The position numbers and the translations under genes were made by a program. A DNA stretch of 64,000 bases from Candidatus Eiseniibacteriota bacterium (GTDB lineage Bacteria > Eisenbacteria > RBG-16-71-46 > JABDJR01). Numbering within the stretch: position 1 is the first letter of the stretch; every line of letters starts with the position of its first letter. The notes under the pieces were generated by a model. The model was not told the DNA's origin. It saw only the letters and a program-made list of their open reading frames with translations, and searched no databases. The DNA lies in the NCBI GenBank assembly GCA_942491735.1, contig CALOCN010000001.1:1030071-1094070 (forward strand). Reading direction: 5' to 3'. Shown in pieces: positions 1-47,895 of this stretch.

Positions 1-31
1 CCCTCCGCGACCTCTCCCGGACAGCGGTCAC

Positions 32-1219
32 GTGGCGTACCTGCGCACCGACTTCTGGTTCGGGGTCAAGGCGGGGGGCTCGGTCAGTCACATCCATGGG
101 TTTCTCAGCGGAATGCGCGAGTCCGGTCGCGAGCCCACCGTGGTGACCAGCGATCACCTGGCCGCGCTCCCCGACGGAGTGCGGGAGGTGGTGGTGCCGC
201 CCGCTTCCAGACCGTCGCTGGTCGAAGAAGCCGCGCTCATGGCCTACAACCGCCGGTTCACCCAGGGCGCGGTGGAGGCCCTGCGCAAGGACCCGCCGGA
301 CCTCGTGGTGCATCGTCATGCGGTCTTTGCCCTGGAAGGGGTCTTGGTGGCCCGCGCCCTGGATCGTCCCCTGGTATTGGAAGTCAACAGCAGTGAAGTT
401 TGGGTCAAGAAGAACTGGAGTCGTCTCCACTTCGAGTGGATCGCGTCCGCCATGGAACGCCGCGCCTTGGCCTGCGCGGACCGGGTGACCGTGGTTTCGA
501 GCGTGCTCCGCGATCAGATCGCGGCGCTGGGCGTGGATCCGGCGCGGATCGTCGTGAACCCCAACGGAACCGAACCGGAGCGGTTCGACCCCGGGAGCAC
601 CGGCGAGTCGCTCCGCGCCTACTACGGAATTCCCGGGGATGCCCTGGTCGCCGGCTTCCTGGGCACCTTCACCCGCTGGCATGGGGTGCTGTTCCTGGCC
701 GAGCAGGTTGCCGCGCTCTGTCGCGAGGAGCCGAAGCTCTACTTCCTGTTCATCGGCGACGGGGATCTCCGGGCCGCGGTCCAGGAGCGCATTACGTCCG
801 ACGGGATCGACAACCGCGCCCGGTTCACCGGGCTCATTGGCCCGGACGAGATTCCCGATCTCCTGGCCGCCTGCGACATCCTGGTCTCCCCGCACTTGCC
901 CTTCGAGGACGGTACGCCGTTTTTTGGTTCCCCGACCAAGCTGTTCGAGTACATGGCCGCCGGTCGTCCCATTGCCGCCTCGCGTCTGGGCCAGATCGGC
1001 GATCTGCTGGAGGATGGGGTCACGGCCAGGCTGTTCGAGCCCGGGGACGCCGAGGGACTGCGGGCCGCGATCCTCGACCTGGCGCGGGATCCCGAGCTGC
1101 GCTCCCGACTGGCCCGGACCGCCCGGGACACCGTGTCCCGGGACTACACCTGGGCCGCGAACGCGCGCCGGGCCCTCGATCCGTCCCCCAAATCGACTCG
1201 CGACACACCCCCCGATTGA
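32..1219 (+). CDS. glycosyltransferase family 4 (GT-B fold)
   Basis: 395-aa ORF; C-terminal GT4-type region (GSPTKLFEYMAAGRPIAAS) by eye; GTG start at 32 with no in-frame stop upstream, so the N-terminus may lie left of the window. Confidence 0.8.
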   Translation: MAYLRTDFWFGVKAGGSVSHIHGFLSGMRESGREPTVVTSDHLAALPDGVREVVVPPASRPSLVEEAALMAYNRRFTQGAVEALRKDPPDLVVHRHAVFALEGVLVARALDRPLVLEVNSSEVWVKKNWSRLHFEWIASAMERRALACADRVTVVSSVLRDQIAALGVDPARIVVNPNGTEPERFDPGSTGESLRAYYGIPGDALVAGFLGTFTRWHGVLFLAEQVAALCREEPKLYFLFIGDGDLRAAVQERITSDGIDNRARFTGLIGPDEIPDLLAACDILVSPHLPFEDGTPFFGSPTKLFEYMAAGRPIAASRLGQIGDLLEDGVTARLFEPGDAEGLRAAILDLARDPELRSRLARTARDTVSRDYTWAANARRALDPSPKSTRDTPPD

Positions 1220-1254
1220 TCCATTCCCCGCGCTGAGGCACAATCCAAGTCCTT

Positions 1255-2205
1255 ATGGCATCTTCATATCCGGGACGCGCCGTGGTCATGGGTGGCGCGG
1301 GGTTCCTCGGCTCCCATCTGACCGAAGCACTGCTGGCCCAGGGCCGGGGTGTCCGCGTCTTCGACCGCGAGAAGGCCAACCTGCGCAATGTGGAGGGGCT
1401 GGCCGGCGACTGGGAGTTCCAGGGGGGCGACTTCGCCAACGAAGCGGACCTCACCGCCGCGGTGGCCGGGGTGACCACGGTCTTCCATCTCATCTCCACC
1501 ACCATCCCGGCCAGCTCGAACCAGAACCCCATCTACGACGTGGAGACCAACCTCGTTTCCACGCTGCGCCTGCTCGAGGCGTCCCGCCGGGAAGGGGTGC
1601 GCAGCCTGGTCTTTCTCTCCAGCGGCGGCACCGTCTACGGACGCCCCCGTACCCTGCCCATCGCCGAGGATCATCCCACCGAACCCCGCGTGTCCTACGG
1701 CGCGGTCAAGTTGGCCATCGAGAAGTACCTGCGTCTCTATCACCACCTGCACGGACTCAACGTGCGCATCCTTCGTCTGAGCAATCCCTACGGGCCGCGT
1801 CAGGAAACGGGCGGGGCCCAGGGCGCGGCCTCGGTTTTCCTGGGACGGGTGTTGCGGGACGAACCCATCACCATCTGGGGCGACGGAAGCGTGGTTCGCG
1901 ACTACATCTACGTCGCCGATTCGGTGGAGGCCATGTTGGCGGCGGAACGCACCGAGGCCGGGGAGGGCGTGTGGAACATCGGCTCGGGAACCGGGGTGAG
2001 CCTGCGGGAGCTGGTGAGCACGATCCAGGAGGTGGTGGGCCGCGAGGTGCAGGTCGACTACAAACCGGGTCGCCCCTTCGACGTGCCCGAGAACGTCCTG
2101 GATGTGGGTCTGGCCGGCAAGGACCTGGGTTGGGTTCCCCGAACCGACCTGGCCACCGGGTTGCGCAAGACCTGGGACTGGCTCCAGGCGACGGCGTCTC
2201 CATGA
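1255..2205 (+). CDS. NAD-dependent sugar epimerase/dehydratase (SDR family, UDP-glucose 4-epimerase-like)
   Basis: Rossmann motif GGAGFLGSHL near N-terminus; catalytic YxxxK (YGAVK); ATG start. Confidence 0.85.
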   Translation: MASSYPGRAVVMGGAGFLGSHLTEALLAQGRGVRVFDREKANLRNVEGLAGDWEFQGGDFANEADLTAAVAGVTTVFHLISTTIPASSNQNPIYDVETNLVSTLRLLEASRREGVRSLVFLSSGGTVYGRPRTLPIAEDHPTEPRVSYGAVKLAIEKYLRLYHHLHGLNVRILRLSNPYGPRQETGGAQGAASVFLGRVLRDEPITIWGDGSVVRDYIYVADSVEAMLAAERTEAGEGVWNIGSGTGVSLRELVSTIQEVVGREVQVDYKPGRPFDVPENVLDVGLAGKDLGWVPRTDLATGLRKTWDWLQATASP

Positions 2206-2951
2206 GCGTGCTCGGCAAGGACGGACAGCCGATCAGCCTTTCCATTTTCTTTCCCGCCTACTACGACGAGCTCAACATCCCCAAGGTGGTGGCGGGATCG
2301 CTGCGCGTGGTGCAGGAACTCGGGATCGACGACTACGAGATCACCATCGTCGAGGACGGCAGCCCGGACCGGACGGGGGAGGTCGCCGACGAGCTGGCCG
2401 CGGAACACGAGCACGTCCGGGTCATCCACCACGAGACCAACCAGGGCTACGGCATGGCCCTGCGCACCGGGTTCCTCAGCGCGACCAAGGACTACGTCTT
2501 CTATACCGACGGGGACAACCAGTTCGACCTGGACGAACTCAAGAAGTTCGTCTCGCTGATCCCCTATACGGACATCGTCTCCGGCTTCCGGGTGCGCAAG
2601 CAGTACTCCAACTGGCGCAAGTTCACCTCGTCCACCTACAACCTGGTTCTGCGCACCCTCTTCGACATCCACGACCGGGACGTGGACTGTGCCTTCAAGC
2701 TCTATCCCACCCGTCTGTTCCGGGAGATCGAGATCGAATCGCGGGACGCCTTTATTGACGCCGAGATCGCCATCAAGGCGCGGCTGCTGGGCTATACCCA
2801 GACCGAGGTCGGGGTGACCCATCTGCCCCGTCTCGACGGCATCTCGACGGGGGCGCGCCCCTCGGTCATTCTCCGCACAATCGGTGAAATCAGAAGGGCG
2901 TATCGGAAGTACGGAAAGCAGATCCGGGAGGCCGGGCGCAAGGACGGTTGA
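2202..2951 (+). CDS. glycosyltransferase family 2 (polyprenyl-phosphate sugar synthase-like, GT-A fold)
   Basis: Real gene is the C-terminal 249 codons of track ORF 639..2951; ATG at 2202 overlaps upstream stop (ATGA); DxD-like YTDGDNQFD; rest of the long ORF is out-of-frame over genes 1-2. Confidence 0.8.
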   Translation: MSVLGKDGQPISLSIFFPAYYDELNIPKVVAGSLRVVQELGIDDYEITIVEDGSPDRTGEVADELAAEHEHVRVIHHETNQGYGMALRTGFLSATKDYVFYTDGDNQFDLDELKKFVSLIPYTDIVSGFRVRKQYSNWRKFTSSTYNLVLRTLFDIHDRDVDCAFKLYPTRLFREIEIESRDAFIDAEIAIKARLLGYTQTEVGVTHLPRLDGISTGARPSVILRTIGEIRRAYRKYGKQIREAGRKDG

Positions 2952-2993
2952 CACGGTGGACCCCCGCGGGGCGGCCCGGAGGATATAAGCGCT

Positions 2994-3737
2994 TTGGAGA
3001 CAGAGGTTTACGATTACTTCTACCACGCCGAAGAAGCCCACTGGTGGTTCCGGGCCCGGCGCCGGGTCCTGGCCTCGGTCCTGCGGGGAGTCCTCCCCAC
3101 CGGTTCGCTCCGCATCGCCGACGTGGGTTGCGGCACCGGGGGCATGCTGGGGGTGCTCTCCGAGCTGGGCACGGTCACCGGAGTCGACGCGGCGCCCGAG
3201 GCCCGCGACTATTGTCGTCGGCGGGGATTCGACAACGTCCTGGACCCGGATACCTGGGCCCGCGACGGCGCGTCCTATGATCTGGTCACCGCGTTCGATG
3301 TGGTGGAGCACGTCGAGGACGATGTGGGTTTTCTCCGCATGATGGCCAACCGCCTCGCCCCCGGGGGGCGTCTGTGCGTGACCGTCCCCGCCTACCAGTT
3401 TCTCTGGAGCACGTTCGACGAAATGAACCACCACAAACGTCGCTATTCCCGTCGGCGGTTGGTGGAAGCCATGAACGCGGCCGGGCTGCGCGTCACCCGC
3501 AGCACCCACTTCAACACGTTGCTGTTTCCGCCCATCGCCGCGGTGCGACTGTTGGAGAAGACCCTCCGCGCCGATCCCACCGACCCCGAGGAGAAGAAAC
3601 GTTCCCTGGCCCGTTGGTTCAAGGTGGGTCCCCTCAACGGTCCGCTGGAAGCGGTGTTCGCATCCGAACGACACGCACTGGCCGGTATGGATCTGCCGGT
3701 GGGTTGCTCCATCCTCGCCCTGGCGGAGTCCGCATGA
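2994..3737 (+). CDS. class I SAM-dependent methyltransferase
   Basis: SAM-binding motif I VGCGTGG; TTG start preceded by GGAGGA about 9 nt upstream. Confidence 0.75.
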   Translation: METEVYDYFYHAEEAHWWFRARRRVLASVLRGVLPTGSLRIADVGCGTGGMLGVLSELGTVTGVDAAPEARDYCRRRGFDNVLDPDTWARDGASYDLVTAFDVVEHVEDDVGFLRMMANRLAPGGRLCVTVPAYQFLWSTFDEMNHHKRRYSRRRLVEAMNAAGLRVTRSTHFNTLLFPPIAAVRLLEKTLRADPTDPEEKKRSLARWFKVGPLNGPLEAVFASERHALAGMDLPVGCSILALAESA

Positions 3738-5896
3738 AACAGGTCGTGACCAACAAGTCGGGAGAGCTGCGCATCCTCGAGGTCCCGGATCCGGCGCTGC
3801 AACCCGGCTTCGTGCTGGTGCGCACGGTCTGCTCCCTGGTCTCCCCGGGGACCGAGGGCGCCCAGGTCCGGGAAGGCAAGGCCGGTCTGCTGACCAAGGT
3901 GCGTGAACATCCGCGCGAGGTAAAGCAGGTCCTGGCCAAGCTCAAGAAGGAGGGCGTGCGCTCCGTGGCCAACCAGGTCCAGGAGAAGCTTGCCCAATGG
4001 CGTCCCCTGGGATACAGCCTGTCCGGCACCGTCATCGCGGTGGGGGAGGGCGTGGATGATCTGGCGGTGGGGGACGCGGTGGCCTGTGCCGGTGCGGGGT
4101 ATGCGATCCACGCGGAGCGGGTCTGTGTTCCCCGGAACCTCGTGGTACGCCACCCCGAGGGACTGACCCACGCGCAGGCCGCGTTCGTCACCCTGGGCGC
4201 GATCGCCCTTCAGGGGGTGCGGCGGGCCGAGCCCACCCTGGGCGAACGGGCGCTGGTGGTCGGGTTGGGTCTGGTCGGGCAACTGGCTACCCAGCTCCTG
4301 GTCGCCGCCGGGGTTCGGGTGCTGGTTCGCGACCTGGATCCGGCCCGGATCGCCCTGGCCCGCGAACTGGGAGCGGAGGCCGCGCTGGAAGGGGACGCGG
4401 ATCCCGAAGCCACCGCCGCCGCCTGGACCGGCGGGGTGGGGGTCGATCTGGCCCTGATCTGCGCCGCGACCCGCTCCAGCGCTCCGGTGGATGACGCGGC
4501 GCGCCTGCTGCGCGAACGGGGGCGGCTGGTCGTGGTCGGCGACGTGGGGCTGGAGTTGGAACGCGGCCCCTTCTACATGAAGGAACTCGACTTCACCCTG
4601 AGCAAGTCCTATGGCCCGGGCCGCTACGACCCGGTGTACGAGGAAGGCGGGGTGGATTACCCGGTGGGGTACGTGCGCTGGACCGAGGGCCGCAACATGG
4701 AAGCGGTGCTGGACCTGATCGCGCGCGGCCGCCTTTCGGTGGACCGTCTGGTGAGCGAAACCGTCGTCGTGGACGACGCCCCGGGCATCTACGAGAAGAT
4801 CGTCGCCGGCGAGGGTGGCCTGGCCAGCGTGATCACCTACCCCGAAACCAACGTGGCGCCCTCCCGCACGGTGCAGCTGACTCCGGCCGCGCCGGTCGAG
4901 GGCAAGGCCGGCGTGTTGGCGGTGGGAGCCGGCTACTTCGCCAAGGCCTTTCATCTTCCCAACCTCGCCCGGCAGGAGGCCCTGCACCTGGCCGGCGTGG
5001 TGAGCGGCACCGGCGCCAATGCCCGCCAGACCGCCGAACGCTACGGAGCTTCCTTCGCCGGCACGGACCTCGACGAAGCGCTGACCCAGCCCGGCGTGGA
5101 CGCGGTGCTGCTCTCGACCCGTCACCATCTTCATGTTCCCCAAGCCCTGGCCGCGATCCGCGCCGGCAAGCACGTTCTGGTGGAGAAGCCGCTGGCGCTG
5201 GACCGGGAGGGTCTGCGTGATCTGGCCCAGGCCCTGCAACGGAATCCGGTGCGGCTCGCGGTGGGGTTCAATCGCCGTCACGCACCCCTGGTGACGTCGT
5301 TGCGCGAGCTGCTTGCTGCCAGCGGCGGCCCCATCCACGGGGTCTACCGGATGAACGCGGGGCGCCTCCCCGCGGATCACTGGGTGAACGATCCGGTGGA
5401 AGGCGGGGGACGCATCCTCGGGGAGGGTGTCCACGTGTTCGACCTGTTCACCCATCTTGCGGGAACCCCGGTGCGGGTGCAGGCCTCCATGGTGCGTTCG
5501 GCCGACGACGCGGTCATCGATACCGACAACCTGACCGCCACCGTGACCTTCGAGAACGGATCGGTCCTCACGCTCCTCTACACCACCGCCGGTCCCAAGG
5601 GTTATCCCAAGGAACAGCTCGAGGTGTTCGCGCCCGGTCTGGCCGCCACGCTCATCGACTATCGCGAGCTGGCCTGGACCGGATCCCGAAGCGGGAAGAA
5701 GACCCTGCGCGCCGAGGACAAGGGGCAGGCCGCGGAGATGGACGCGTGGGCCGGGTATCTCACCGGCAAGGATGCAGCGGTCGCCGACTTCCAGGCCGCC
5801 GCGCTCTCCACCTGGCTCACCCTCATGGCCCTCGAGTCCGCGCGCACCGGGGAGCCCCGGGAGGTCGCGGCCACGCTGTCCGAGGTGCTTGGGTAG
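3734..5896 (+). CDS. bi-domain oxidoreductase (N-terminal MDR/zinc-ADH-like domain fused to Gfo/Idh/MocA-like domain)
   Basis: Internal ATG at 3734 (residue 121 of track ORF 3374..5896) overlaps upstream stop (ATGA); two dehydrogenase-like halves by eye. Confidence 0.75.
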   Translation: MKQVVTNKSGELRILEVPDPALQPGFVLVRTVCSLVSPGTEGAQVREGKAGLLTKVREHPREVKQVLAKLKKEGVRSVANQVQEKLAQWRPLGYSLSGTVIAVGEGVDDLAVGDAVACAGAGYAIHAERVCVPRNLVVRHPEGLTHAQAAFVTLGAIALQGVRRAEPTLGERALVVGLGLVGQLATQLLVAAGVRVLVRDLDPARIALARELGAEAALEGDADPEATAAAWTGGVGVDLALICAATRSSAPVDDAARLLRERGRLVVVGDVGLELERGPFYMKELDFTLSKSYGPGRYDPVYEEGGVDYPVGYVRWTEGRNMEAVLDLIARGRLSVDRLVSETVVVDDAPGIYEKIVAGEGGLASVITYPETNVAPSRTVQLTPAAPVEGKAGVLAVGAGYFAKAFHLPNLARQEALHLAGVVSGTGANARQTAERYGASFAGTDLDEALTQPGVDAVLLSTRHHLHVPQALAAIRAGKHVLVEKPLALDREGLRDLAQALQRNPVRLAVGFNRRHAPLVTSLRELLAASGGPIHGVYRMNAGRLPADHWVNDPVEGGGRILGEGVHVFDLFTHLAGTPVRVQASMVRSADDAVIDTDNLTATVTFENGSVLTLLYTTAGPKGYPKEQLEVFAPGLAATLIDYRELAWTGSRSGKKTLRAEDKGQAAEMDAWAGYLTGKDAAVADFQAAALSTWLTLMALESARTGEPREVAATLSEVLG

Positions 5897-5898
5897 CC

Positions 5899-7767
5899 GT
5901 GGGATTCCTGGGGGATCTCCGGTACTTCGGGCCCCGGTTGGGCCCAAACCGGGCCGTCCGACTCGTCGCGGCGAAGCTCTCCAAGACCCGTCGCAAACGC
6001 CGCCTGGCCGCGGATCTCGCCCGCCCCACCCCGCCGGACGCGGTGTGCCGCGGGTTGGGTTTGTCGAAGGACCCCCACGAACGGGTCGCGACCCTGCGCT
6101 CCTCCTGGGAGCAACTCGCCGCCGCCACCCTGCCTTCCCTGCCCGACCCGGACACCGCACGCCGCCACGCCGACGCAGTGCTGGCCGGTCGTCAGCACCT
6201 TTTCGACCAGGATCCCGACGTGGGTTGGCCCCCCAACTGGAACTGGCGCTGGGACGGAACCGACAACGCGGCGCGGTTCCGCGACGACATCCGCAGCACC
6301 TGGGAACTGCAACGTCTCCAGGGGCTGCTTCCGCTGGCCGTCGCGGCGCGGGCCCTGGCCAGCGAGGCGGATGCCGAGGCCTGGTTCACCGGGGTGGAGA
6401 GCTTCGCCGCGGCGCATCCCGGCCCGGGTGGAGTGGCCTGGGAAAGCGCGCTGGAGCTGGGACTCCGCTGCCTTGCCCTGGTCCAGGGGCTGGTCCTACT
6501 CGCGCCCACCGAGGCCTTTGCCACCCGGCACCTGAATGTCCTCACCGTGCTGGAGCGGCACCTGCGTTGGCTGGAGGCGGATCTGAGCCTGGACAAGGTA
6601 GTGCGCGGCAATCACCTCCTGGGCGAACTGGCCGGGCTGATCGCGGGGCGCCTTCTCTTTGCCGCGGACACGGGCAATCTGGAAACAGCCCGCCGGTCGC
6701 TGGACCTCCTGCACGGGGAAATCACAGCCCAGTTTCACCCGGACGGGGTCAACGTGGAGCAGTCCCTCACCTACGAGGCCTTCATCCTGGAGTTCCTGGT
6801 CGTCCCCCTAGCCATGGCCGACACCCTCGGGCGTGCGGTTCCCGCGGCAACCCGGGATCGCCTCACCCGGGCCGCTCACCATCTGGAATGCTGCACCGCG
6901 CCGGACGGATCGCTTCCCCGGGTGGGGGACGCCGATTCGGGCCGTGGAGCTGTCCTCGCCCCACCCAAAGAAGCCCTGCCCGGGCTTCTCGAGCGGGTCC
7001 GCCGGCTCGGCGGACCGGGCCCCGCCGCCTCCGGCGGGCCGTCCGGGGAACCCGCTTTGCCGCGCATCTTCCCCGACGGGGGCCATGTCACCTGGACCCC
7101 GGCCCCCGGGGCGTTCCTCTTCCTGCGGGGAGGGCCGTTTGGCTGGGGTCTTCCGGGACCGGCCTCGCACAGCCACGCGGACCTGCTGGCCCCGGTCCTC
7201 TACCTGGGCGGGGAGCCGCTCCTGGTGGATCCGGGGGTCTTTGGCTATCGCATCGGGGCCGATCGGGACGCGGATCGGGTCCGGGGGGCCCATTCGGCCC
7301 TGGATCCGGGGGCCTCGGTGGGGCCCTTCCCGGCCGGAACCTTCCGCTGGGCGGGCATTCCGGAGGATGCGAAGGTACACTCCCCGGCCCCGGACAGGGT
7401 CCAGGGGACGGTCCCCCTGGCCGGGCCAAACGGCCCTTTGATCTGGCAGAGGTCCATACGGTACAATCAATTAGACGAAACTTGGATAATCCTCGATCGC
7501 CTTCAAGGCAACCCACCCGGCCCCGTAACGTGGGGCTTTCGCTTTGCTCCAGGAATTCATATCGAGTCGGAGACGGAGGGCGTCTACCGGGTTCGTCTGG
7601 CTTCCGGTCGTACCCTGGATGTGCGTCTGGAACCGGTGGGAGAGACATGGGTCGAGGATGCATGGGTGGCGCCGGCCTACGGTCGGCGCGTCCAGGCGCC
7701 GGTTTTGAGGCGACGGATCGAAGGGGCCTTCGAAGAGACGGCCGTGACGTTCACCCCGCGGCGCTGA
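5899..7767 (+). CDS. heparinase II/III-like family protein
   Basis: GTG at 5899, 2 nt after upstream stop, in frame of track ORF 5746..7767; N-terminal [10 protein letters not shown] region and NHLLGE / EQSLTYE segments typical of the family by eye. Confidence 0.6.
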
Positions 7768-7795
7768 CCGCTCGGGGTTTTCAACAGGAGATCGT

Positions 7796-8728
7796 GTGAA
7801 CATCCTCATTACCGGGGGCGCGGGCTTTATCGGCTCCAATCTCTCCGAGTTCCTTCTGGGGCAGGGCCATCGCGTCATCGCCATGGACAACCTGCTGACC
7901 GGGAAGGTGGAGAACATCGAGCACATCCACCACCCGAAGTTCACGTTCATCGACTATGACGTGACCAACTTCATCTTTGTCGACGAGCCGCTGGACTACG
8001 TGCTGCACTTCGCCAGCCCGGCCAGCCCCATCGACTATCTCAAGCTTCCCATCGCCACCCTGAAGGTGGGGGCGATCGGGACCCACAAGGCGCTCGGGTT
8101 GGCCAAGGCCAAGGGGGCGAGCTTTCTCATCGCGTCGACCAGCGAGGTCTACGGGGATCCGCTGGTCCATCCCCAGGAGGAGTCGTACTGGGGAAACGTG
8201 AACCCCATCGGCATCCGCGGGGTCTATGACGAAGCCAAGCGGTTCGCCGAGGCCATGACCATGGCGTATCACCGGTACCACAAGGTGGACACCCGGATCC
8301 TGCGGATCTTCAACACCTTCGGACCGCGGATGCGCCGCAATGACGGTCGGGCGGTGCCCACCTTCATCAATCAGGCGCTGTCGAACCAGGACATCACGGT
8401 GTTCGGGGACGGATCGCAGACCCGCTCCTTCGGCTACATCGACGACCTGGTGGAGGGCATCTACAAGCTCATGCTCTCCAGCGAGAACGACCCGGTGAAC
8501 ATCGGCAATCCGCAGGAAATGACGGTGAAGGAGATGGCCGAGACCATCATCGAGCTCACCGGCTCCAAGAGCAAGATCATCTACGCGCCGCTTCCCGAGG
8601 ACGATCCCAAGGTGCGTCAGCCGGATATCTCCAAGGCCAAGCGGGTGTTGGACTGGGAACCCCGGACCCCGGTGCGCGAGGGCCTGATCAAGACGGTAGA
8701 ATGGTTCGCTGCCAACCACTCGAAGTGA
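7796..8728 (+). CDS. UDP-glucuronate decarboxylase (UDP-xylose synthase, ArnA-decarboxylase-like SDR)
   Basis: GTG start with AGGAG 5 nt upstream; TGGAGFIGS Rossmann motif, YDEAK catalytic motif; strong by-eye similarity to UXS proteins. Confidence 0.85.
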
Positions 8729-8732
8729 AGGA

Positions 8733-9452: not shown

Positions 9453-9456
9453 GTCC

Positions 9457-15325: not shown

Positions 15326-15333
15326 GCGGGGCG

Positions 15334-16311
15334 GTGGTGGACGTTCTGGACGCCGACGCGCCCCCCGAGGGAATGGACGCGCTCTGGACCTCGGTGCCCG
15401 GGGCCACCCTGTTCCTGCAACCGAGATGGACCGAGACCCTTTCCCGCGCCTTTCCCGGGCTTCGGTCCCGTTATCTGATCGCCCGCGAGGGGAACCGCCT
15501 GACCGGCGTGTTGCCCTACACCCTCAAACGCAAGCTGGGTCTGGATCAGGTGCTTTCCTCCCCCTTCGGGACCCACGGGGGTCCGCTCACCGCCGACGGT
15601 CCCACCGCATCCCGTCTCGCCGAGGCGTTCCACAAGCGCGCCACCCGCCCCACCGTGGTCCGCTGCGAGCTCACCGTATTCGATCCCTCCTCGGAACTGA
15701 CCGAGGCCCTGCGCCCGTCCCTGGGCACGTGGTTCCAGGAGTTCCAGACCCACGTCATCGACCTCACCCCGGGGCACGAGGAACTCTGGCTTCACCGGTA
15801 TCGGCGCAACACCCGCAACTGTGTCCGGATGGCCGAACGGGCCGGGCTGCTCTACACGGTGGAGCGGGACGAGGCGGCGCTTGCCTTCCTCGCCCGTACC
15901 CACGCCGAACAGGCCGAGGCCTGGACCGGCATTCCTCCCGTCCCCCTGGAGGCGCTGCGGGTGGTGATGGACGCCTACGGTAATGACGCACGCATTCTGG
16001 TGGGACGCCGGGAGGGGGAGCCGGTGTGCGCCATTCTCATGCTGGAACAGTCGGGGCGGGAAACCCACGCCTGGGTCAGCGGAGCGGTGCCCGAAGCACG
16101 GCCCTTGCGCGCCTATCACGGGCTGATCGACGCCACCATCAAGGACGCCTGCTCCCGCGGGGTAGCCGCGTATCACTTCGGCGGAAGCGGTCGGAAGGAA
16201 AAGCTCGAGTTCTTCAAGGAGACCTTCGCCGCCAAACCGGTCCCCGTCTTGCGTTGCTTCCACATGGCGGGCTGGTTTCGCAGGCTCCGCCGGGGGCCGG
16301 CATGGGACTGA
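15334..16311 (+). CDS. FemAB-like / BioF2-like GNAT-fold acyl- or aminoacyl-transferase
   Basis: GTG start; by-eye resemblance to Acetyltransf_6/FemAB family proteins common in EPS loci. Confidence 0.55.
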   Translation: MVDVLDADAPPEGMDALWTSVPGATLFLQPRWTETLSRAFPGLRSRYLIAREGNRLTGVLPYTLKRKLGLDQVLSSPFGTHGGPLTADGPTASRLAEAFHKRATRPTVVRCELTVFDPSSELTEALRPSLGTWFQEFQTHVIDLTPGHEELWLHRYRRNTRNCVRMAERAGLLYTVERDEAALAFLARTHAEQAEAWTGIPPVPLEALRVVMDAYGNDARILVGRREGEPVCAILMLEQSGRETHAWVSGAVPEARPLRAYHGLIDATIKDACSRGVAAYHFGGSGRKEKLEFFKETFAAKPVPVLRCFHMAGWFRRLRRGPAWD

Positions 16312-17891
16312 GCCGGCTCCTGCCCCTGGCCCTGGTCCTGGTCGCCGTCCTGTTGGGGATCGTGCTCGTTGAGCCCTATCGCGCGGTCACGGTCGAGTTC
16401 GACGACGGACGCACCCTGTCCGTGGTGAACCCGGAACGTCTCAACCACACCTCGGACGTGTGGGACTACCTGCAGCTGGGACGCCGGTTGTTCGAGGGAT
16501 ACGGCTTCAGCAGCCGCTTCACCTATGTCCCGTTCCTGCCGGAGTCCGCCGCGTATCTGGAGGAGCATGACGCGTTCCCGCTCCTCTGGCGCCAACCCGG
16601 CTATCCGGCGCTGCTCGCCCTGGGCTACCGGTTGGCCGGGGGGCCGGACCCCAACGTCCTGCTGGCCCTGCAGCTCCTGTGGGTGATCCTGCTCCCCCTG
16701 GCCACGCTCTACCTGGCCCGCGCCCTGCTCCCGCCGGGAGGCGCCGCGCTGGCCGCCGGGCTCGCCCTGGCTTCGCCGCTCGTGCTGGGTGTACGGGAAC
16801 CCTTGGTGGCGACCACCTTCTTTGCCTGCTGGACCGCGCTCCTTTTCGGTACCGCGCTTCGGGTGCGGGGGCCCATGGGGGTGATCGGGTTGGGGCTGTT
16901 GATCGGGGTGGGGGCCTTGTTCCGCCAGGAGACCTGGCTTCTCGTTCCCGCACTGTTCACCGTGTGGTGGGTGCGAGGCGAGCGGGGGCGGGTGAGCGGG
17001 GTGGCCATCGCCGCGGTCACGGTCCTCCTCGTGCTGCTCCCCTGGATGGTTCGCACCGCGCAGATCACCGGGCACCCGTTCTACAACGCGGCGTCGCTGA
17101 TCTACCACGACACCCCGTCCTTTCCCGGCTGGGCCGCCTCGCGCACCCTGGCCATCCGCGAAACGACCCCGCTCGCGTTCATCCTGGCCCATCCCCTCGA
17201 CATCCTGGCCAAGAGTGCGCTGAACCTGCTCCGGTTCGGCAGGGACCTGCTGCTGCTGCCGGGACCTGCCGCGGCCCTGTTCGCCTGGTGGTTCCTCATT
17301 CGTCCCCAGTCGACCCAACCGCGGGTTCGCGCGTACCGGTGGGGCTACCTGGTTGCCCTTGCCGTTCCGGTACTCGTACTGGCCCCCATGGAGTACGCCC
17401 CCCGTTTTCTCGCCCCCATGGTTCCCCTGGGGGCCACCGCGGCCGCCTTCGCCCTGTCCCGGATTCCCGGTCGGTCGCGTCTGTTGACCGTCGTGGTGCT
17501 CGTGGTGTCCCTGGTCGTGCTGGTCTCCGCGATTCGCAACCGACCGGTCCGGGGAACCGCTCCCGAGGCGATTCGCGACCTGCAGGAACTGGTGTTGCAG
17601 GTGGGGCCCCGCGCACTGGAGCCGGACCAGGTCGTGGTGAGCGATGCCCCGACCCTCTTTGCCTATCTCTGGGATCGGCCGGCAGTGTGGGCACCGGTGC
17701 CGTTGAGCATGCCGGCGGTTCGGGAACTGGTCCCGGTCCGGCTCGGTCTCCTCACCTGCACGGGCGGCATCTATGACGGTCTGCCCCCGGAACTCCTGGG
17801 GCGCTACGCGGCCTACGGCCGGGTGACCCCGCATGGGTGTCGGGCCTGGGTGGACTTCGCTGACCCGCCCGCGGAAGCGACCACCCCATGA
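16302..17891 (+). CDS. polytopic membrane protein, putative GT-C glycosyltransferase (ArnT/PMT-like)
   Basis: Internal ATG 16302; many hydrophobic segments; first-loop motif DVWDYLQLGRRLFEGYG resembling the D(E)xxYxxxAR motif of GT39/GT83 enzymes; assignment tentative. Confidence 0.4.
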   Translation: MGLSRLLPLALVLVAVLLGIVLVEPYRAVTVEFDDGRTLSVVNPERLNHTSDVWDYLQLGRRLFEGYGFSSRFTYVPFLPESAAYLEEHDAFPLLWRQPGYPALLALGYRLAGGPDPNVLLALQLLWVILLPLATLYLARALLPPGGAALAAGLALASPLVLGVREPLVATTFFACWTALLFGTALRVRGPMGVIGLGLLIGVGALFRQETWLLVPALFTVWWVRGERGRVSGVAIAAVTVLLVLLPWMVRTAQITGHPFYNAASLIYHDTPSFPGWAASRTLAIRETTPLAFILAHPLDILAKSALNLLRFGRDLLLLPGPAAALFAWWFLIRPQSTQPRVRAYRWGYLVALAVPVLVLAPMEYAPRFLAPMVPLGATAAAFALSRIPGRSRLLTVVVLVVSLVVLVSAIRNRPVRGTAPEAIRDLQELVLQVGPRALEPDQVVVSDAPTLFAYLWDRPAVWAPVPLSMPAVRELVPVRLGLLTCTGGIYDGLPPELLGRYAAYGRVTPHGCRAWVDFADPPAEATTP

Positions 17892-19438
17892 GCCGCATCC
17901 GCACCAACACCGCGGCCCTTACCGTGAGTTTCTTCGCCACCGCGGCGTTCTACTTCGTCCAGCTCAAGATCATCACCAATTTCCTCAGTCAGACGCAGGT
18001 GGGCGCGTGGACCGCGGTGACCGCGACCGCGCTCCTCCTCATTCCCTTTGCCGAATTGGGGATGGCCCAGGTCCTGGTGCGCTACGGCGCCAAGTACGAG
18101 GCCGAGGGACGCGCCGGTCGATTGGTGGGGTTGTTCGTGCTCTCGTTGAAGGTTCTCGCCGGGGGCGCGCTGGTCGCGGCGGGTGTCCTGCTCCTGACCG
18201 GCCCCTCCCTGGCCGAGTTCCTCGGGAAGGGGGATGAGGAGATCAACCGATGGCTGCTGTTGTTGGGCTTCGCCGCGCTGACCACCGGTTCGCTTCGCGC
18301 CCTGAACAACGCCGCCCTGAGAGGTCTGCGTCGCATGCCGGCCATGGCCGGGTTGGAGATCGGTTTCGGCGCGCTGGTCACGGTGGGTTACTTCCTCTTT
18401 CGTGACCGTCTGGATGTGGGCATGGTGTTCGTGCTCTGGGGTGCGGCGAGCCTCGGGGTCGCGGTGAGCGGCATGGTCTATCTGGTGCGACAGTTCCGCG
18501 CGCTCCCCCCCGATCCCGCGCCCGGAGGGATCCTGCGCGAAGTGCAGGGGTTCTGGCAGGGGGCGGCGACCGGCGGCATTTTCCTCATCGCCATCGAACA
18601 ACTCGACAAGCCCATCCTGGCCGGAATGGTCACCCTGGACCAGCTCGCCCTCTTCCATGTCGCGTCGCGGCTTGCGTTGTTCCCGAGGCGATTGGCCTAT
18701 GTTCCGCTCCAGGTGCTCTACCCGGAAATCACCCACAAGTGGGAGGGGCCCCGGCGTCACGAGTTGCGCGCGGACATGGAGTTGTTCACCAAGCTGATGC
18801 TGGGACTGGGGCTGGCCATGGTCGCGGTCCTGGCCGTCTTCGCCGAACCCCTGCTCCGTCTCAGCTCCAAACCCGAGTACGTGAGCGCAGCCCCGGTGCT
18901 GTGGATGTTCCTGGCCGTGCTGCCGCTCATCTCGCTGCATCAGCCCATGGTCGTCTTCCTGCGTGCCACCGGCATGGTCTGGTACGCCTTCGTGGCCGAG
19001 GCGGCGTGGCTCGTTTCCTACCTGGGAGTGGGGATGCTGCTCCTGTCCCGGTTCGGTCTTCCCGGTTTCGTGGGTGGGCAACTGGTCGCCTCGAGCCTGG
19101 TGCTGGTCTACCTCCTGTTCATCTTCCACCGCCTGGAACTGCCCCGTCCCACCGTGGTCTTCTACCTCAAGCGCTTCCTGGTTTCGACCTTGGTGTGGGT
19201 TCCCTCCGTGGCCATCGGTTCCCGCTTCACCCCGGAGACGATTCCCGCGGCCCTGGTTGCGGTGGTGGGTCTGCTGCTGGTGGGGAATCTGATGGTGGTG
19301 TTGGGCGGTTTCCTCACCCGGGACGAGGAGGACCGGACCCTGGCCATGTTGGCCGGCCGGGGTCGTCTGGGGAGCCTGATCGGATTCTTCTTCGCCTGGC
19401 CACGACGCTTGCTGGGCCTGCGGGGGACGAGCGGGTGA
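17888..19438 (+). CDS. Wzx-like flippase (MOP-superfamily polysaccharide biosynthesis protein)
   Basis: 516 aa, hydrophobic throughout with multiple predicted TM helices; ATG overlaps upstream stop (ATGA). Confidence 0.7.
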   Translation: MSRIRTNTAALTVSFFATAAFYFVQLKIITNFLSQTQVGAWTAVTATALLLIPFAELGMAQVLVRYGAKYEAEGRAGRLVGLFVLSLKVLAGGALVAAGVLLLTGPSLAEFLGKGDEEINRWLLLLGFAALTTGSLRALNNAALRGLRRMPAMAGLEIGFGALVTVGYFLFRDRLDVGMVFVLWGAASLGVAVSGMVYLVRQFRALPPDPAPGGILREVQGFWQGAATGGIFLIAIEQLDKPILAGMVTLDQLALFHVASRLALFPRRLAYVPLQVLYPEITHKWEGPRRHELRADMELFTKLMLGLGLAMVAVLAVFAEPLLRLSSKPEYVSAAPVLWMFLAVLPLISLHQPMVVFLRATGMVWYAFVAEAAWLVSYLGVGMLLLSRFGLPGFVGGQLVASSLVLVYLLFIFHRLELPRPTVVFYLKRFLVSTLVWVPSVAIGSRFTPETIPAALVAVVGLLLVGNLMVVLGGFLTRDEEDRTLAMLAGRGRLGSLIGFFFAWPRRLLGLRGTSG

Positions 19439-20403
19439 CGGTGCGGTTCGGTTGGGGACTCGCCCAAGCCGAGCCCCTGCTGGAGCGGGCGCCCAGCCTG
19501 TTCCAGACGCCCCGTTGGCTGCACGCGTTGGCCGGCGCCTATCCCCGGTTTCGGCTCGGGGCGTTCCGGGTGGAACGGGATGGGGTGGTGACAGCGGTGC
19601 TCCCGGTGGCCCGGGCCAGGCCCTCGGGCCTGCACGAGTGGGTCTCGCTTCCCTTCGGCACCGACGGGGGGCCGGTGTTCCGGGAGACTCCCGATCCCGA
19701 GGCAGCTACGCAGCTGTTCCGGGCCTTTCGCGACCGGGTGGGGGGACTGCGGGTGGCCCGGTACGAGATGGTCATCCCCCAACCGGGTGAAACGGTGGCG
19801 CGTGCGTTTCGCGACGTGTTCTCCACCCGGGTGCGCGAGGACCGGGTGCGGGTGTTGGAATTGACCGAGGGACCCCGGGCGATCTGGGATGGCTACGCCG
19901 GTACCATGCGCACCCGGATCCGCCGTGCCCGGGAACTCGGGGTCCGGGTGGAGTCCATGCCGGCCTCGGCCCAGGCCCTGGCCCGGTTCTATCCCCCTTA
20001 CGAACGCCTCAGCCACGCATGGGATCTGTCCTGGCGTCACGACCGGGAGACCCTGGAGGCCTTGACCGCCGGTCTCGGGGATGGGGCGCGGATCTGGGTG
20101 GGATCGGTGGAGGGCCGGGTGGTCACCACCGAACTCATGCTCTACGACCGGGGCACCACCGCGCACACCTGGCTCTGCGGCGCGGTTCCCGAGTCCCGGG
20201 ATGTCTTTGCCCGCCATCTGTTGTTGCACACGGTGATCGAGAACGCCGCGCGGGAGGGCTACCGGCGGATGGTCTTCGGGGCCAGCGGGGGGAGCGACGG
20301 GGTGGACGGGTTCAAGCGCGGGTTCGGGGGCTCTCCGCGCCCCGTGCTGCGGGCCTTCCATCAGGCCCGTTGGGTCGATTGGGTGCAGCGGGCCCGATGG
20401 TGA
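19435..20403 (+). CDS. FemAB-like / BioF2-like GNAT-fold transferase (second copy)
   Basis: GTG at 19435 overlapping flippase stop (GTGA); C-terminal half resembles gene 15334-16311 (TWLCGAVPESR vs AWVSGAVPEAR; FGASGGSDG vs FGGSGRKEK). Confidence 0.55.
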   Translation: MTVRFGWGLAQAEPLLERAPSLFQTPRWLHALAGAYPRFRLGAFRVERDGVVTAVLPVARARPSGLHEWVSLPFGTDGGPVFRETPDPEAATQLFRAFRDRVGGLRVARYEMVIPQPGETVARAFRDVFSTRVREDRVRVLELTEGPRAIWDGYAGTMRTRIRRARELGVRVESMPASAQALARFYPPYERLSHAWDLSWRHDRETLEALTAGLGDGARIWVGSVEGRVVTTELMLYDRGTTAHTWLCGAVPESRDVFARHLLLHTVIENAAREGYRRMVFGASGGSDGVDGFKRGFGGSPRPVLRAFHQARWVDWVQRARW

Positions 20404-20435
20404 TACACTTTTTCGGATTTTGCCCCGGGAGACCC

Positions 20436-21464
20436 ATGAACAGACACCACATCCTCCGCCGTCCGACCGCGATCCACGCGCTGAGCCTTCTCGTTCTTGT
20501 CGCCTTCGGCTGCTCGGGAGAGCCGGGCCAGAGCGGGGAACTTGGTCCCGGGGCCTATGTCGACGAGCACGTGCCCCCGACGGTGCGTACCTCCCTCGAG
20601 GAAGCGGCAGGCAAGTTCTATGCCTCCATCCGCTCCGGGAACCCGGAGATGGTTCTCGCCCAGGTTGCCCTGGCTGCGCGCAGTCAGATCACCGCCGACC
20701 AGTTCCTCGAGTCCGTGCAACGCATCGCCGGAACCTTCGGGATGCCGGAGGACATGTCCACGGACTCGGTGGTCCTGGTGAAGTTCGGCCCGGGCTACCC
20801 GCACGCGGCCCGGGTGCGGGCCCCGGTCGAGGGGATGGACGACGACGCGGAGCTGTTGCTGACCCCGCATCCGGAGCAGGCCTCGCTGGTCCAGATCGGG
20901 CGGGTGGGCGAGGAGCGGGCCTATTTCTCGACCCTGTGGTTCAAGGAGGAAGCCGGGTGGCGGGTCGCCGCCTTCTTTGCCAAGCCGGCCACCATGGTGG
21001 GGCGCGACTGGCGCGACTACTCCGAGGAAGCGGCGTCCCAGCGACTGGCCAAGAACAACCGCAACGCGGCGATTCTCTACAACCTCGCCATCGATCTCAC
21101 CGTTCCGGCGGCGTGGATCAAACCGGCCGGGGTGGCCGAGCTGCAACGCGCGCAGAAGCGCATCATGGTCACCCAGCTTCCCACCGGAAAGCCGGAGGTC
21201 TGGGGGGCCGCACCCGACACCTTCTCCGTGGCCCGGGTCGGCTATGGCTGGGTTCCCGAGGGCCTGACCGTCTACGTGCAGTACCAGGCGACCGGCACCG
21301 ACAGCCTGTCCGAGGCTCCGCACAGCGAGCGGCTCAGGGACTATGTCGTGGAGACCTTCCCGGAGTACCGTGAAGTGTTCACCGGCATGTCCGCGGTGGG
21401 CTATCGCCCGGGGGAATCCACCCCGGTCCTGTCCCGCAACTTCTTCTGGAAGGACGGGTCGTGA
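20436..21464 (+). CDS. hypothetical lipoprotein
   Basis: ATG 20436; signal peptide with lipobox LVAFGC; preceded by an AT-rich stretch (tgatacactttttcggattttg); no recognisable domain. Confidence 0.55.
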   Translation: MNRHHILRRPTAIHALSLLVLVAFGCSGEPGQSGELGPGAYVDEHVPPTVRTSLEEAAGKFYASIRSGNPEMVLAQVALAARSQITADQFLESVQRIAGTFGMPEDMSTDSVVLVKFGPGYPHAARVRAPVEGMDDDAELLLTPHPEQASLVQIGRVGEERAYFSTLWFKEEAGWRVAAFFAKPATMVGRDWRDYSEEAASQRLAKNNRNAAILYNLAIDLTVPAAWIKPAGVAELQRAQKRIMVTQLPTGKPEVWGAAPDTFSVARVGYGWVPEGLTVYVQYQATGTDSLSEAPHSERLRDYVVETFPEYREVFTGMSAVGYRPGESTPVLSRNFFWKDGS

Positions 21465-22606
21465 CCGGGGAGGCCTCGGCCGAGCCCCGCAAGTTGACTC
21501 TGGCGTACCTCTCGATCGGCCGACACATCCACACCGAGCGGTGGCTGACCTGGTTCGCCCGGCAGGGGCACGACGTGCATCTGCTCACCGTGCAGCCGGG
21601 GCCCATGCCGGGAGTGACCGTCCACGACATCACCACCCCGTTCGGGCCCAAGCCGCTGCGCTACGCGCTCAGCCTGGCCAAGGTGAAACGCATCCTCACC
21701 GGTCTGGACCCGGATCTGCTCCACACCCATTTCCTGACCGGTTATGGATACTGGGGCGTGTTCAGCGGACGGCGTCCGTTCATGCTCACCGTCTGGGGGG
21801 ACGACGTCTACGTGACCCCGTTCGAGAGCGGGATGAAGAATCGCCTCGCCCGCAAGGCCCTCCGCGAGGCGGACTACGTGACCGGGGACTCGGTCGACAT
21901 CATTGATGCCTGCATCGAACTGGGTTCCGACCCGGCCCTGAGCGAGGTCGTGCAGTGGGGGGTGGACTTCACCCGGTTTACCCATGAGGTGGACGGCTCC
22001 GCAGTACGACAGAAGCTGGGCATCCCGGTCGATGCCCCGGTGGTGCTCTCCACCCGTTCGTTCACCCAGGCGTACTACAACATCGACCTCGTAGTGGACA
22101 CCGCGCCCAGGGTGCGGGAGCGCATCCCCGGGGTGCACTACATCATCGCCGGGAACGAGGGGGACGACACCGCGTTTCGCGCCCATGCCGCCTCGGTCGG
22201 GCTCACCGACCGGGTGCACTGGGTGGGACGCATTCCCCACGGGGAACTTCCCGCGTACCTCACCGCGAGCGATGTCTTTCTCACCATCCCCTCGGTGGAC
22301 GCGACCGCGGTCAGCCTGCTCGAGGCCATGGCCTGTCGCTGCGCCATCGTGGCCACCGATCTCCCCTCCGCGGCCGAGTGGGTGCTGAACGGGGAGACCG
22401 GTCTTACCGTGACCCCGCGCGACGCGGAGGGTCTGGTCACCGCCATCTGCCGCTTCCTCGAGGATCCGGTCCTTGGAGAGAAGGTGGGCGTCGCGGCCCA
22501 GACCCTGGTCCGGGGCAAGGCGGACCATGACCGCAACATGGCCCGGGTCGAAACCATCTACTACGACCTCGTGGCCGGGCGCAAACCGGTTCCGCCCACC
22601 GGGTGA
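21461..22606 (+). CDS. glycosyltransferase family 4
   Basis: GTG start overlapping upstream stop; C-terminal GT-B region LLEAMACRCAIVATDLPSAAEWVLNGETG. Confidence 0.8.
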   Translation: MTGEASAEPRKLTLAYLSIGRHIHTERWLTWFARQGHDVHLLTVQPGPMPGVTVHDITTPFGPKPLRYALSLAKVKRILTGLDPDLLHTHFLTGYGYWGVFSGRRPFMLTVWGDDVYVTPFESGMKNRLARKALREADYVTGDSVDIIDACIELGSDPALSEVVQWGVDFTRFTHEVDGSAVRQKLGIPVDAPVVLSTRSFTQAYYNIDLVVDTAPRVRERIPGVHYIIAGNEGDDTAFRAHAASVGLTDRVHWVGRIPHGELPAYLTASDVFLTIPSVDATAVSLLEAMACRCAIVATDLPSAAEWVLNGETGLTVTPRDAEGLVTAICRFLEDPVLGEKVGVAAQTLVRGKADHDRNMARVETIYYDLVAGRKPVPPTG

Positions 22607-23547
22607 CCATGCGGATCTCGGTCGTCACCCCCACCTACAACAAGCCGGACCTGCTCGCCCGGACCCTGACCGCGCTGGAAGCCCAGGACCTGGAGCCCAC
22701 CACGTTCGATGTGGTGGTCGTCGACGATGGATCGGACAACGTCCGGACGGCGGAGTTGTTGGCGACCCATCGACCCCGCCACGGATTCACCGTGGTGCGG
22801 GTGGAGGAGAACCGGGGACGCGCCGCGGCGCGCAATCGCGGGTTGGAACGGGCCGAGGGGGAGTTGGTCGTCTTTCTCGACGACGACATGGAACTGGTGC
22901 CGGGATTCCTGGGCGCCCACGCCGACCTGCACCGGCGGATGAACAAGGTGGCCGGAGTGGGGGATGTGCAGAACCATCCCGAGATCACCATGGCCCCCAT
23001 TGATCGCTACATGTCGACCCGGGGGGCGCAGAAGATACGGGACCGGGGGGCGCTCCCCTGGAAGTACTTCAGCACCAACAACTCCTCGGTGCGTCGTGAC
23101 GACCTGGTCGCGGTGGGCGGGTTCGACGAGAATTTCCGCTACTACGGGTTCGAGGACCTCGAGCTGGCCTATCGTCTGGAGCAGAAGCGGGAGGTCACCC
23201 TGCGCTTCGTGGAGGGGGCGAAGTCGCTCCACATCCACCCCCACACCCTGGACGAGGTGCTCGACAAGAAGACCCTGTGCGGGCGGTCCTCCTTGCCCTA
23301 CCTCTTCGACAAGCATCCCGAGACCCGGGCCGCGCTGGGGTACACACGCTTCGATCCGCCTCGGGCGGGGGACCCCCTGGGATTGAACCTGCAACGACTG
23401 TTCCTGCGCATCCTGCTCACCCGGCCCGTCTACACCCTGGTGAAGCCTCTGGCCCTGCTTCCCCTGGGCGCACTCACCAACCGGGCCATCGACTTCCTGG
23501 TGCAGTACCACTATCTGGAAGGACTGCGCGCCCCGCGCCTGCCATGA
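22603..23547 (+). CDS. glycosyltransferase family 2
   Basis: ISVVTPTYNKPDLL and VVDDGSDN motifs, DxD-like FLDDDME; start GTG 22603 or ATG 22609. Confidence 0.8.
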   Translation: MTMRISVVTPTYNKPDLLARTLTALEAQDLEPTTFDVVVVDDGSDNVRTAELLATHRPRHGFTVVRVEENRGRAAARNRGLERAEGELVVFLDDDMELVPGFLGAHADLHRRMNKVAGVGDVQNHPEITMAPIDRYMSTRGAQKIRDRGALPWKYFSTNNSSVRRDDLVAVGGFDENFRYYGFEDLELAYRLEQKREVTLRFVEGAKSLHIHPHTLDEVLDKKTLCGRSSLPYLFDKHPETRAALGYTRFDPPRAGDPLGLNLQRLFLRILLTRPVYTLVKPLALLPLGALTNRAIDFLVQYHYLEGLRAPRLP

Positions 23548-25306: not shown

Positions 25307-25382
25307 ACGCAACAGCGTAGTGCAGCCTCTGGGGAACGTCGAGCGGATCACGCGCCGGGATTCGCGTGCGAAGGAGGTTTTC

Positions 25383-47821: not shown

Positions 47822-47895
47822 GTACTTTCTTGACAATAGTTTATGACTTTCCCTGGGGAAAGTCGCTCGGGTTTCGGCGGCGGTAGGTGCCTGTT

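Follow-up and report, generated by a model that had tools for sequence, protein, structure and literature searches.

In the gum-disease bacterium Porphyromonas gingivalis, PorZ is a surface component of the T9SS (type IX secretion system) attachment complex and keeps its C-terminal domain when it is itself secreted (PMC5121618); it binds an anionic lipopolysaccharide (A-LPS), which it passes on to the PorU sortase, a function described from work in this one species alone (PMC8545088). In the Wbp/Vim pathway, which makes the A-LPS anchor, VimA, of the FemAB family TIGR03019, adds serine or glycine to the linking sugar, the Asn-synthase-like amidotransferase WbpS produces the uronamide form, and the genes involved carry widely separated locus numbers (PMC7468200). 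Here we describe, from a stretch of 64,000 nucleotides of a Candidatus Eiseniibacteriota genome (assembly GCA_942491735.1, contig CALOCN010000001.1, positions 1,030,071 to 1,094,070; hereafter the window), an operon of 18 genes (g01 to g18, all on the plus strand and ending at 23547) in whose middle a PorZ-like secreted protein, g10 (11601–13874), is encoded. This is very probably a conserved, Wzx-dependent operon of the Eisenbacteria lineage for a lipid-linked glycan, without local polymerase or export genes. By analogy with P. gingivalis, we further propose, at somewhat less than even confidence, that the operon would make the attachment glycan for T9SS cargo and encode the protein that presents it, and, a shade more tentatively, that in this uncultured and little-studied phylum of the FCB group (probably Eisenbacteria) a single conserved operon would combine the synthesis of a T9SS anchor glycolipid, its linking sugar aminoacylated by a VimA-like pair, with a dedicated PorZ-like delivery protein.

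The backbone of the operon is formed by a priming enzyme and a flippase. The first, g09 (9457–11601), is a GT2 glycosyltransferase fused to a polytopic phosphoglycosyl transferase of the WbaP/WcaJ type (PF00535, PF13727 and PF02397), with four hydrophobic segments in residues 270–554 and a match to TIGR03025 of 133 bits, against a subfamily cut-off of 295; the second, g14 (17888–19438), is a Wzx-type flippase with about 12 transmembrane segments (PF01943, 44.8 bits, cut-off 28.2). An earlier account made from the letters of the window (the sequence-only reading) had described the cluster as lacking classical export genes, which overlooks g14 and leaves out the priming enzyme; its narrower statement, that no Wza, Wzc, Wzz or ABC-type capsule exporter lies in the window, holds for every gene called. 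Among all genes called in the 64 kb, we found none for Wzy, WaaL, Wzz, Wzc, Wza, Wzm/Wzt or KpsMT. The genome's own 2.2-kb left flank, where only a divergent FG-GAP/TPR gene is present, has no export or polymerase gene, and in two relatives the 10 kb that precede the syntenic clusters likewise contain no Wzy, WaaL, Wzz, Wzc or Wza. The same account would have been undone by such genes just outside the window, and in the left flank and in the relatives' upstream DNA there are none. These negatives cover the window, the 2.2-kb flank and about 10 kb upstream in the two relatives, and such genes may be encoded elsewhere in the genome. Of the components of the Wzx/Wzy pathway, the operon thus holds the priming transferase and Wzx and lacks Wzy and Wzz/Wzc (as well as Wza), and no linked Wzm/Wzt or KpsM/KpsT points to an ABC-transporter-dependent capsule or O-antigen pathway. 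With this set of genes the product proposed earlier, a lipid-linked oligosaccharide destined for lipopolysaccharide, lipid or protein rather than a secreted capsule, is consistent.

Two candidates for a missing component were considered and rejected. The sole ABC-2 pair in the window (49740–51731) is DrrA/DrrB/NodIJ-like and lies 26 kb away among unrelated genes, so that we discount it as a glycan exporter, and an additional gene for a 428-residue protein in one relative (L083) encodes no transmembrane segments and is not a Wzy polymerase.

The operon is kept as a unit over considerable sequence divergence. A search with g10 returned the exact protein (P0001) and 23 orthologues at 41–54% identity, one of them labelled Candidatus Eisenbacteria; orthologues of g01 carry the same label, and the labelled orthologues in all are P0022, P0144, P0171 and P0172. 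The order g01 to g18 is maintained in three independent relatives (L081/L165, L083/L166 and L169), at orthologue identities of 35–83%, with g15 absent from L081 and g13 from L169. Because gene order is kept across such divergent relatives, we take the product to be a housekeeping glycan rather than that of a variable capsule locus, capsule and O-antigen loci being hypervariable. The position of g10 is identical in every syntenic relative examined, and in six of six contexts it directly follows the priming transferase; two of these are gene calls that fuse priming transferase and propeller (P0004 and P0011), possibly as a result of frameshifts. The fusion of GT2 and priming transferase seen in g09 is shared with L083, while L081 and L082 carry two overlapping genes in its place (7870–10004 in L081). 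In the two relatives that have long contigs, the operon begins further upstream, with additional genes for a short-chain dehydrogenase/reductase (SDR), a GT2, a nucleotidyltransferase, a GHMP kinase, two GT4 glycosyltransferases, a YfhO-type GT-C protein and, beside g01, an Asn-synthase-like amidotransferase whose best match is TIGR03108 (WbpS-like; 538 bits, cut-off 816.9); a TMEM260-like GT-C protein is found upstream as well.

The protein encoded by g10 is 757 residues long and comprises a signal peptide, with no other hydrophobic segment, two seven-bladed Reg_prop β-propellers and a putative T9SS-type C-terminal β-sandwich that opens with YPNP, as is typical of sorting domains. A secreted propeller protein with a sorting-like tail at this place had been proposed before and is confirmed in all three parts; the accompanying notion of a "regulator" propeller fails, as g10 has no transmembrane or kinase module and its architecture is PorZ-like, that is, that of a T9SS surface component. 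In its AlphaFold (AF2) model (pLDDT 86.8, pTM 0.77), about 56 strands are predicted in residues 37–644 ahead of the C-terminal sandwich, and the modelled architecture, with a signal peptide, two seven-bladed propellers, a C-terminal β-sandwich and neither transmembrane nor kinase parts, matches that of P. gingivalis PorZ (PG1604/PGN_0509, PDB 5m11; 776 residues; PMC5121618), in which two consecutive Reg_prop propellers are likewise followed by a seven-stranded β-sandwich. Among solved structures, Foldseek places PorZ first (TM-scores 0.64/0.65, E-value 6e-28), with sensor ectodomains at about 0.34. The profile of the g10 family (24 members) matches 5m11 at an E-value of 1.9e-38 in a single collinear stretch, residues 165–751 against 140–758, with the C-terminal domain included; the ectodomains of hybrid two-component sensors score higher than PorZ with this profile, but as several repeated fragments. 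The profile also touches the C-terminal domain of PorU (6za2), and FlgD_ig is recorded for two orthologues (P0008 and P0016).

In sequence, PorZ and g10 are only about 17–23% identical, g10 carries a lineage-specific HCCCx4C motif and it comes from outside the Bacteroidota. This motif belongs to a near-invariant cysteine cluster of the g10 family, W-x3-C-C-C-x4-C (GHCCCPEGRC, residues 393–404; window positions 12780–12815), which is accompanied by C163 and C170 and could form a metal site or a disulfide knot in the second propeller. It is absent from another PorZ-like protein, P0101, which aligns with g10 end to end (797 columns, 23% identity, E-value 3e-29) and, along almost all of its sequence, with the NCBIfam PorZ model (209 bits, under the cut-off of 260). 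Whereas g10 sits inside a glycan operon, the gene of P0101 does not: it lies at 4709–6949 of a 69% GC contig of unknown lineage (L167), between priA and a DUF4159 gene, and the 1117-residue protein encoded next to it, considered as a PorU, was rejected, as it has no NCBIfam match. Because the score of g10 on the PorZ model is low, its C-terminal domain stays under cut-off and P0101 occurs in a non-glycan context, we call g10 PorZ-like in predicted architecture and fold, not a demonstrated PorZ.

A comparison with the Wbp/Vim pathway, described for P. gingivalis and Tannerella forsythia (PMC7468200), shows further overlap. Both have a priming enzyme of the WbaP type and a Wzx, and the operon encodes a WbpB-like Gfo/Idh/MocA domain in g05 and two FemAB-type, putatively VimA-like acyl- or aminoacyl-transferases, g12 (15334–16311) and g15 (19435–20403), while the WbpS-like amidotransferase is contributed by the relatives. 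For both FemAB-type proteins PF13480 is passed (58 bits for g12, 48.5 bits for g15) and TIGR03019 is the best NCBIfam match, at 74 and 46.7 bits, respectively, against a cut-off of 260; both are encoded near g10, by their coordinates downstream of it. The operon in turn holds genes that the A-LPS pathway lacks, for a heparinase-fold protein, a CapD-type dehydratase, a methyltransferase and a GT-C protein, and where the gene numbers of P. gingivalis suggest separate loci, the genes here form a single operon.

That the organism clearly uses the T9SS sorting signal follows from seven further proteins in the window that carry type-A/FlgD_ig C-terminal domains, encoded at 28547–29449 (plus strand), 30511–32043, 34018–35529, 39627–41669 and 51803–55159 (all minus strand), and 58495–62742 and 62809–63696 (both plus strand). 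Among them are a GH16 glucanase, an FG-GAP protein, a β-helix protein and β-propeller proteins. Judged by their predicted tails, putative cargo is encoded here, at seven proteins in 64 kb, more densely than is usual for organisms that do not belong to the Bacteroidota. We found nothing relevant on Eisenbacteria and T9SS in the literature searched, nor any case, outside the Bacteroidota, of a glycan operon in which a PorZ-like gene has a fixed place. After the predicted signal-peptide cleavage, four of nine secreted proteins begin with glutamine (VRA/QN, ASA/QP, ALS/QD and ALA/QD, the slash marking the cleavage), at 11601–11700 (g10), 28547–28620 and 41500–41669 (minus strand) of the window and at 1500–1612 (minus strand) of contig L164; in the g10 family, the residue concerned, Q31, is at least 90% conserved. 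This predicted glutamine resembles the Q-rule of Bacteroidetes, which is described as specific to them (PMC5837995).

From these elements a pathway can be sketched, of which the individual enzyme roles, a periplasmic side-branch (g08/g03 with g13), glycan binding by g10 and the link to a sortase are what we infer. Nucleotide sugars would be tailored in the cytoplasm by six proteins: g02 (1288–2205), an NAD-dependent sugar epimerase/dehydratase of the SDR type (PF01370, E-value 2e-53; GalE/LegB-like); g07 (7796–8728), an SDR-type NAD-dependent sugar dehydratase/epimerase (PF16363/PF01370) that is 75–83% identical to its counterparts in the relatives; g11 (13871–15325), a UDP-HexNAc 4,6-dehydratase of the CapD/PseB/FnlA type (PF02719, E-value 1e-97; NCBIfam PseB 158 bits, FnlA 137 bits) in a soluble form without transmembrane segments; g05 (3734–5896), a two-domain oxidoreductase, Zn-ADH-like (PF00107) and Gfo/Idh/MocA (PF01408/PF22725), that is sugar 3-dehydrogenase-like, with under-cut-off matches to inositol 2-dehydrogenase and an archaeal UDP-GlcNAc 3-dehydrogenase; g04 (2994–3737), an S-adenosylmethionine-dependent methyltransferase (Methyltransf_23/11/12/25); and g06 (5899–7767), a heparinase II/III-like protein (PF16889, PF07940) whose N-terminus, read directly, shows no signal peptide, so that it is presumably cytoplasmic.

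The phosphoglycosyl transferase half of g09 would prime undecaprenyl phosphate, and the oligosaccharide would be extended by the GT2 fused to it together with g01, g17, g18 and perhaps g03. Both g01 (from the window edge to 1219, where its 5' end is cut off) and g17 (21461–22606) are GT4 glycosyltransferases, the former with a membrane-anchored N-terminal extension (Pfam Glyco_transf_4 and Glycos_transf_1), the latter with PF00534/PF13477, and for both the best NCBIfam match is TIGR04063 (stp3), under cut-off and at 142 bits for g01; g18 (22603–23547) is an EpsD-like GT2 (PF00535; NF041875, 191 bits, under cut-off). After the oligosaccharide has been flipped to the periplasmic face by Wzx (g14), a side sugar would probably be added in the periplasm by g08 and/or g03 with g13. 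The former two are small GT2s of the polyprenyl-phosphate-sugar synthase type, g03 (2202–2951; PF00535) being ArnC/PgfS-like, with NCBIfam matches to PgfS, ArnC and dolichyl-phosphate hexose transferase that all remain under cut-off, and g08 (8733–9452; PF00535, E-value 2e-34) PpgS/AglJ-like, with matches to both; g13 (16302–17891) is a GT-C membrane glycosyltransferase of the PMT_2/ArnT-like kind, with about nine transmembrane segments by hydropathy and a marginal match to PF13231 (28.1 bits, cut-off 26.1). The locus itself encodes neither a polymerase nor a chain-length regulator nor an outer-membrane exporter, and the most likely product is therefore a short lipid-linked glycan, which would end on a surface glycolipid. 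This glycan would be the attachment anchor for T9SS cargo, analogous to A-LPS of P. gingivalis: g12 and g15 would decorate an amino sugar with an amino acid or an acyl group, giving the amine to which the C-termini of the cargo are joined, and g10, exported by Sec and then by T9SS via its C-terminal domain, would bind the glycan at the cell surface and present it to a PorU-type sortase.

We favour this anchor role because genes of the TIGR03019/PF13480 type lie near the PorZ-like gene, a WbpS-like gene is present in the relatives and seven further proteins carry T9SS tails. Several results weigh against it. Judged by raw sequence scores, the ectodomains of sensor kinases are at least as near to g10 as PorZ is; g10 reaches 83.8 bits on the NCBIfam PorZ model (NF052228, cut-off 260; 68–104 bits for its orthologues), of which only its last 187 residues (571–757) align, and its C-terminal domain scores 21.7 bits on TIGR04183, just under the cut-off of 23. 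P0101 is the more canonical PorZ-like protein and, if it stems from the same lineage, this lineage would have two PorZ paralogues, with g10 as a paralogue rather than the PorZ. The TIGR03019 matches of g12 and g15 are far under cut-off. We detected no homologue of WbpA, WbpE/PorR, WbpD or VimE in the cluster, and there is no UDP-sugar 6-dehydrogenase, DegT, LbH acetyltransferase or CE4 domain among g01 to g18 and the adjoining g19. No T9SS core gene (PorU/V/Q, Sov, PorKLMN) occurs in the window.

The locus might instead be an ordinary O-antigen or exopolysaccharide (EPS) operon, whose polymerase, ligase and outer-membrane export genes would lie elsewhere and in which g10 would be an accessory T9SS-secreted glycan-binding protein with no role in attachment; we regard this as possible but rather doubtful. 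Like Wzx/Wzy-type O-antigen and EPS clusters, the operon brings together a priming transferase, GT2s and GT4s, nucleotide-sugar tailoring enzymes and Wzx in one co-oriented unit, which is the standard Wzx-dependent toolkit, and export genes are often unlinked and tight packing is ordinary. A cassette formed by g01, g04, g05 and g06 recurs in the polysaccharide loci of many phyla, and the best NCBIfam matches of several proteins are to families of EPS loci (stp3, EPS_sugtrans, EpsD and pepcterm_femAB). With the EPS loci of PEP-CTERM/exosortase (XrtA) systems in particular, the operon shares its best family matches (TIGR04063 for g01 and g17, TIGR03019 for g12 and g15, TIGR03025 for g09 and TIGR03108 for the Asn synthase of the relatives), but all of these scores are under cut-off, the sorting signal is a T9SS C-terminal domain and neither an exosortase nor a PEP-CTERM protein is encoded in the window. 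Against an ordinary surface-polysaccharide operon speak the lack of Wzy, Wzz, Wzc and Wza within about 10 kb in three genomes, and of WaaL locally or in the syntenic relatives, a gene order that is conserved across distant relatives where such loci are variable, and a PorZ-like gene that is fixed beside the priming enzyme in every context.

General protein glycosylation, akin to O-glycosylation in Bacteroidota or to the streptococcal Pgf system, would account for some of the same features, with g13 transferring the flipped oligosaccharide or polyprenyl-phosphate sugars to secreted proteins and g10 as a substrate or accessory, and we consider it unlikely. It would suit a PMT_2-type GT-C protein encoded together with two GT2s that resemble polyprenyl-phosphate-sugar synthases, PgfS and AglJ among them, a pairing also seen in three-component periplasmic glycosylation (ArnC/ArnT, GtrB/GtrC, PgfS/PgfM); the further GT-C proteins upstream in the relatives point the same way, Wzx without Wzy suits transfer en bloc, and general glycosylation loci are conserved, as this one is. 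However, the PMT_2 match of g13 is marginal and g13 is missing from L169, neither a dedicated small flippase of the three-component kind nor a member of a recognised oligosaccharyltransferase family (PglB, PglL or Wzy_C) was identified, while the PorZ-like g10 and the FemAB-type g12 and g15 would be left unexplained. That g10 might instead be a periplasmic or extracellular carbohydrate sensor regulating the operon is very improbable: Reg_prop repeats are typical of hybrid two-component sensors, which are the top scorers by sequence, but g10 has no transmembrane helix after the propellers and no Y_Y_Y, kinase or output domain, ends in a secretion-type β-sandwich and has no partner kinase nearby.

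Should the operon indeed serve T9SS cargo attachment, PorZ-type glycan presentation and sortase anchoring would predate, or extend beyond, the Bacteroidota, and the attachment branch of T9SS would be extended to a phylum for which the literature searched holds no such report. One locus could then show the smallest set of genes needed for an anchor glycan, giving a compact candidate set for reconstitution, and a PorZ-like gene fixed in a conserved glycan operon would independently support PorZ-type proteins as handlers of one specific glycan. If the anchor role is wrong, what is left is a well-conserved Wzx-dependent glycan operon of ordinary interest.

Genes were called by third-position GC frame analysis combined with Pfam and NCBIfam matches, as the window is 64–71% GC and raw lists of open reading frames are swamped by spurious frames; start codons were set from gene calls on identical contigs where these existed (g02 at 1288, g16 at 20436). 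By this analysis, plus-strand genes follow one another in an unbroken run from the window start to 24401. The sequence-only reading had counted nineteen plus-strand genes in positions 32–23547: the strand is right, the number is 18, and the nineteenth gene, g19 (23544–24401, plus strand), lies beyond and encodes endonuclease III (Nth; TIGR01083, 251.7 bits, over cut-off), which is not a glycan gene. It adjoins the end of the cluster in the relative L081 too. The junctions from g01 to g19 measure, in order, 68, -4, 42, -4, 2, 28, 4, 4, -1, -4, 8, -10, -4, -4, 32, -4, -4 and -4 nt, negative values being overlaps, so that 10 of the 18 overlap by 1–10 nt, for which the "mostly" of the earlier account is generous, and the remainder are gaps of 2–68 nt. 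Elsewhere in the window, 4 of 16 co-directional pairs overlap; packing is denser in the cluster, not exceptional. Because a 4-nt overlap (ATGA) also ties g18 to the unrelated nth and overlaps occur elsewhere in the window, we reject the start/stop overlaps as a functional signal: the dense packing is real but ordinary for an operon of 68% GC and no evidence of shared function, and the translational coupling previously proposed was drawn from these overlaps alone.

At the left edge, the reading frame of g01 is open to the window border, and the start at position 32 given previously is an artefact of that border. The full product has 557 residues (P0121, 100% identical), and on a 9-kb contig (L164) that matches the window over 6771 bp with 0 mismatches, g01 starts 455 nt to the left of window position 1. 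It is preceded there by 171 bp of non-coding DNA and then by the divergent gene, which encodes a secreted, non-glycan protein with TPR and FG-GAP repeats; in this genome, the spacer and the divergent gene mark where the operon ends on the left. On the right, g19 closes the run and is followed by a convergent diacylglycerol-kinase-like gene (DAGK_cat, 24398–25450, minus strand). Scans for promoters and terminators gave no signal above shuffled background that would mark the borders of the operon.

The lipoprotein encoded by g16 (20436–21464) is restricted to this lineage: only eight homologues are detectable in 5.8 billion protein clusters, always in this operon where the context is known. Its structure is confidently predicted as two tandem NTF2/cystatin-like domains, and with this NTF2-like fold in a soluble lipoprotein we reject it as a hidden export or polymerase component. 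Further along the window, an 880-bp stretch (47822–48701) between the genes for a molybdopterin oxidoreductase and an Obg/TGS-type GTPase contains no open reading frame with a Pfam match.

The cassette at 1–7767 consists of a GT4 of about 550 residues that is extended at its N-terminus, together with a methyltransferase, a two-domain oxidoreductase (Zn-ADH/Gfo) and a heparinase II/III-fold protein of the cytoplasm. Scans of genome and metagenome contigs with g01 mostly returned homologues from other phyla, at 37–49% identity, and polysaccharide loci with this cassette occur in metagenome-assembled genomes that include those of Ignavibacteria, Acidobacteriota, Bacteroidota, Chloroflexota and Actinomycetota (L003, L013, L016, L021, L024, L027, L034, L039, L044, L046 and L063). 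Its sugar product appears uncharacterised, and the literature searched held nothing relevant on a heparinase-fold/oxidoreductase/Asn-synthase cassette. In the Eisenbacteria relatives L165 and L166, it is adjoined by the WbpS-like Asn synthase. Within the cassette, the third-position GC signal fades over the last ~400 nt of g06 (7350–7650), and the sole σ70-like match (7438–7467) and several terminator-like hairpins fall into this same interval; either an internal regulatory element or no more than weak conservation of the g06 C-terminus might account for this.

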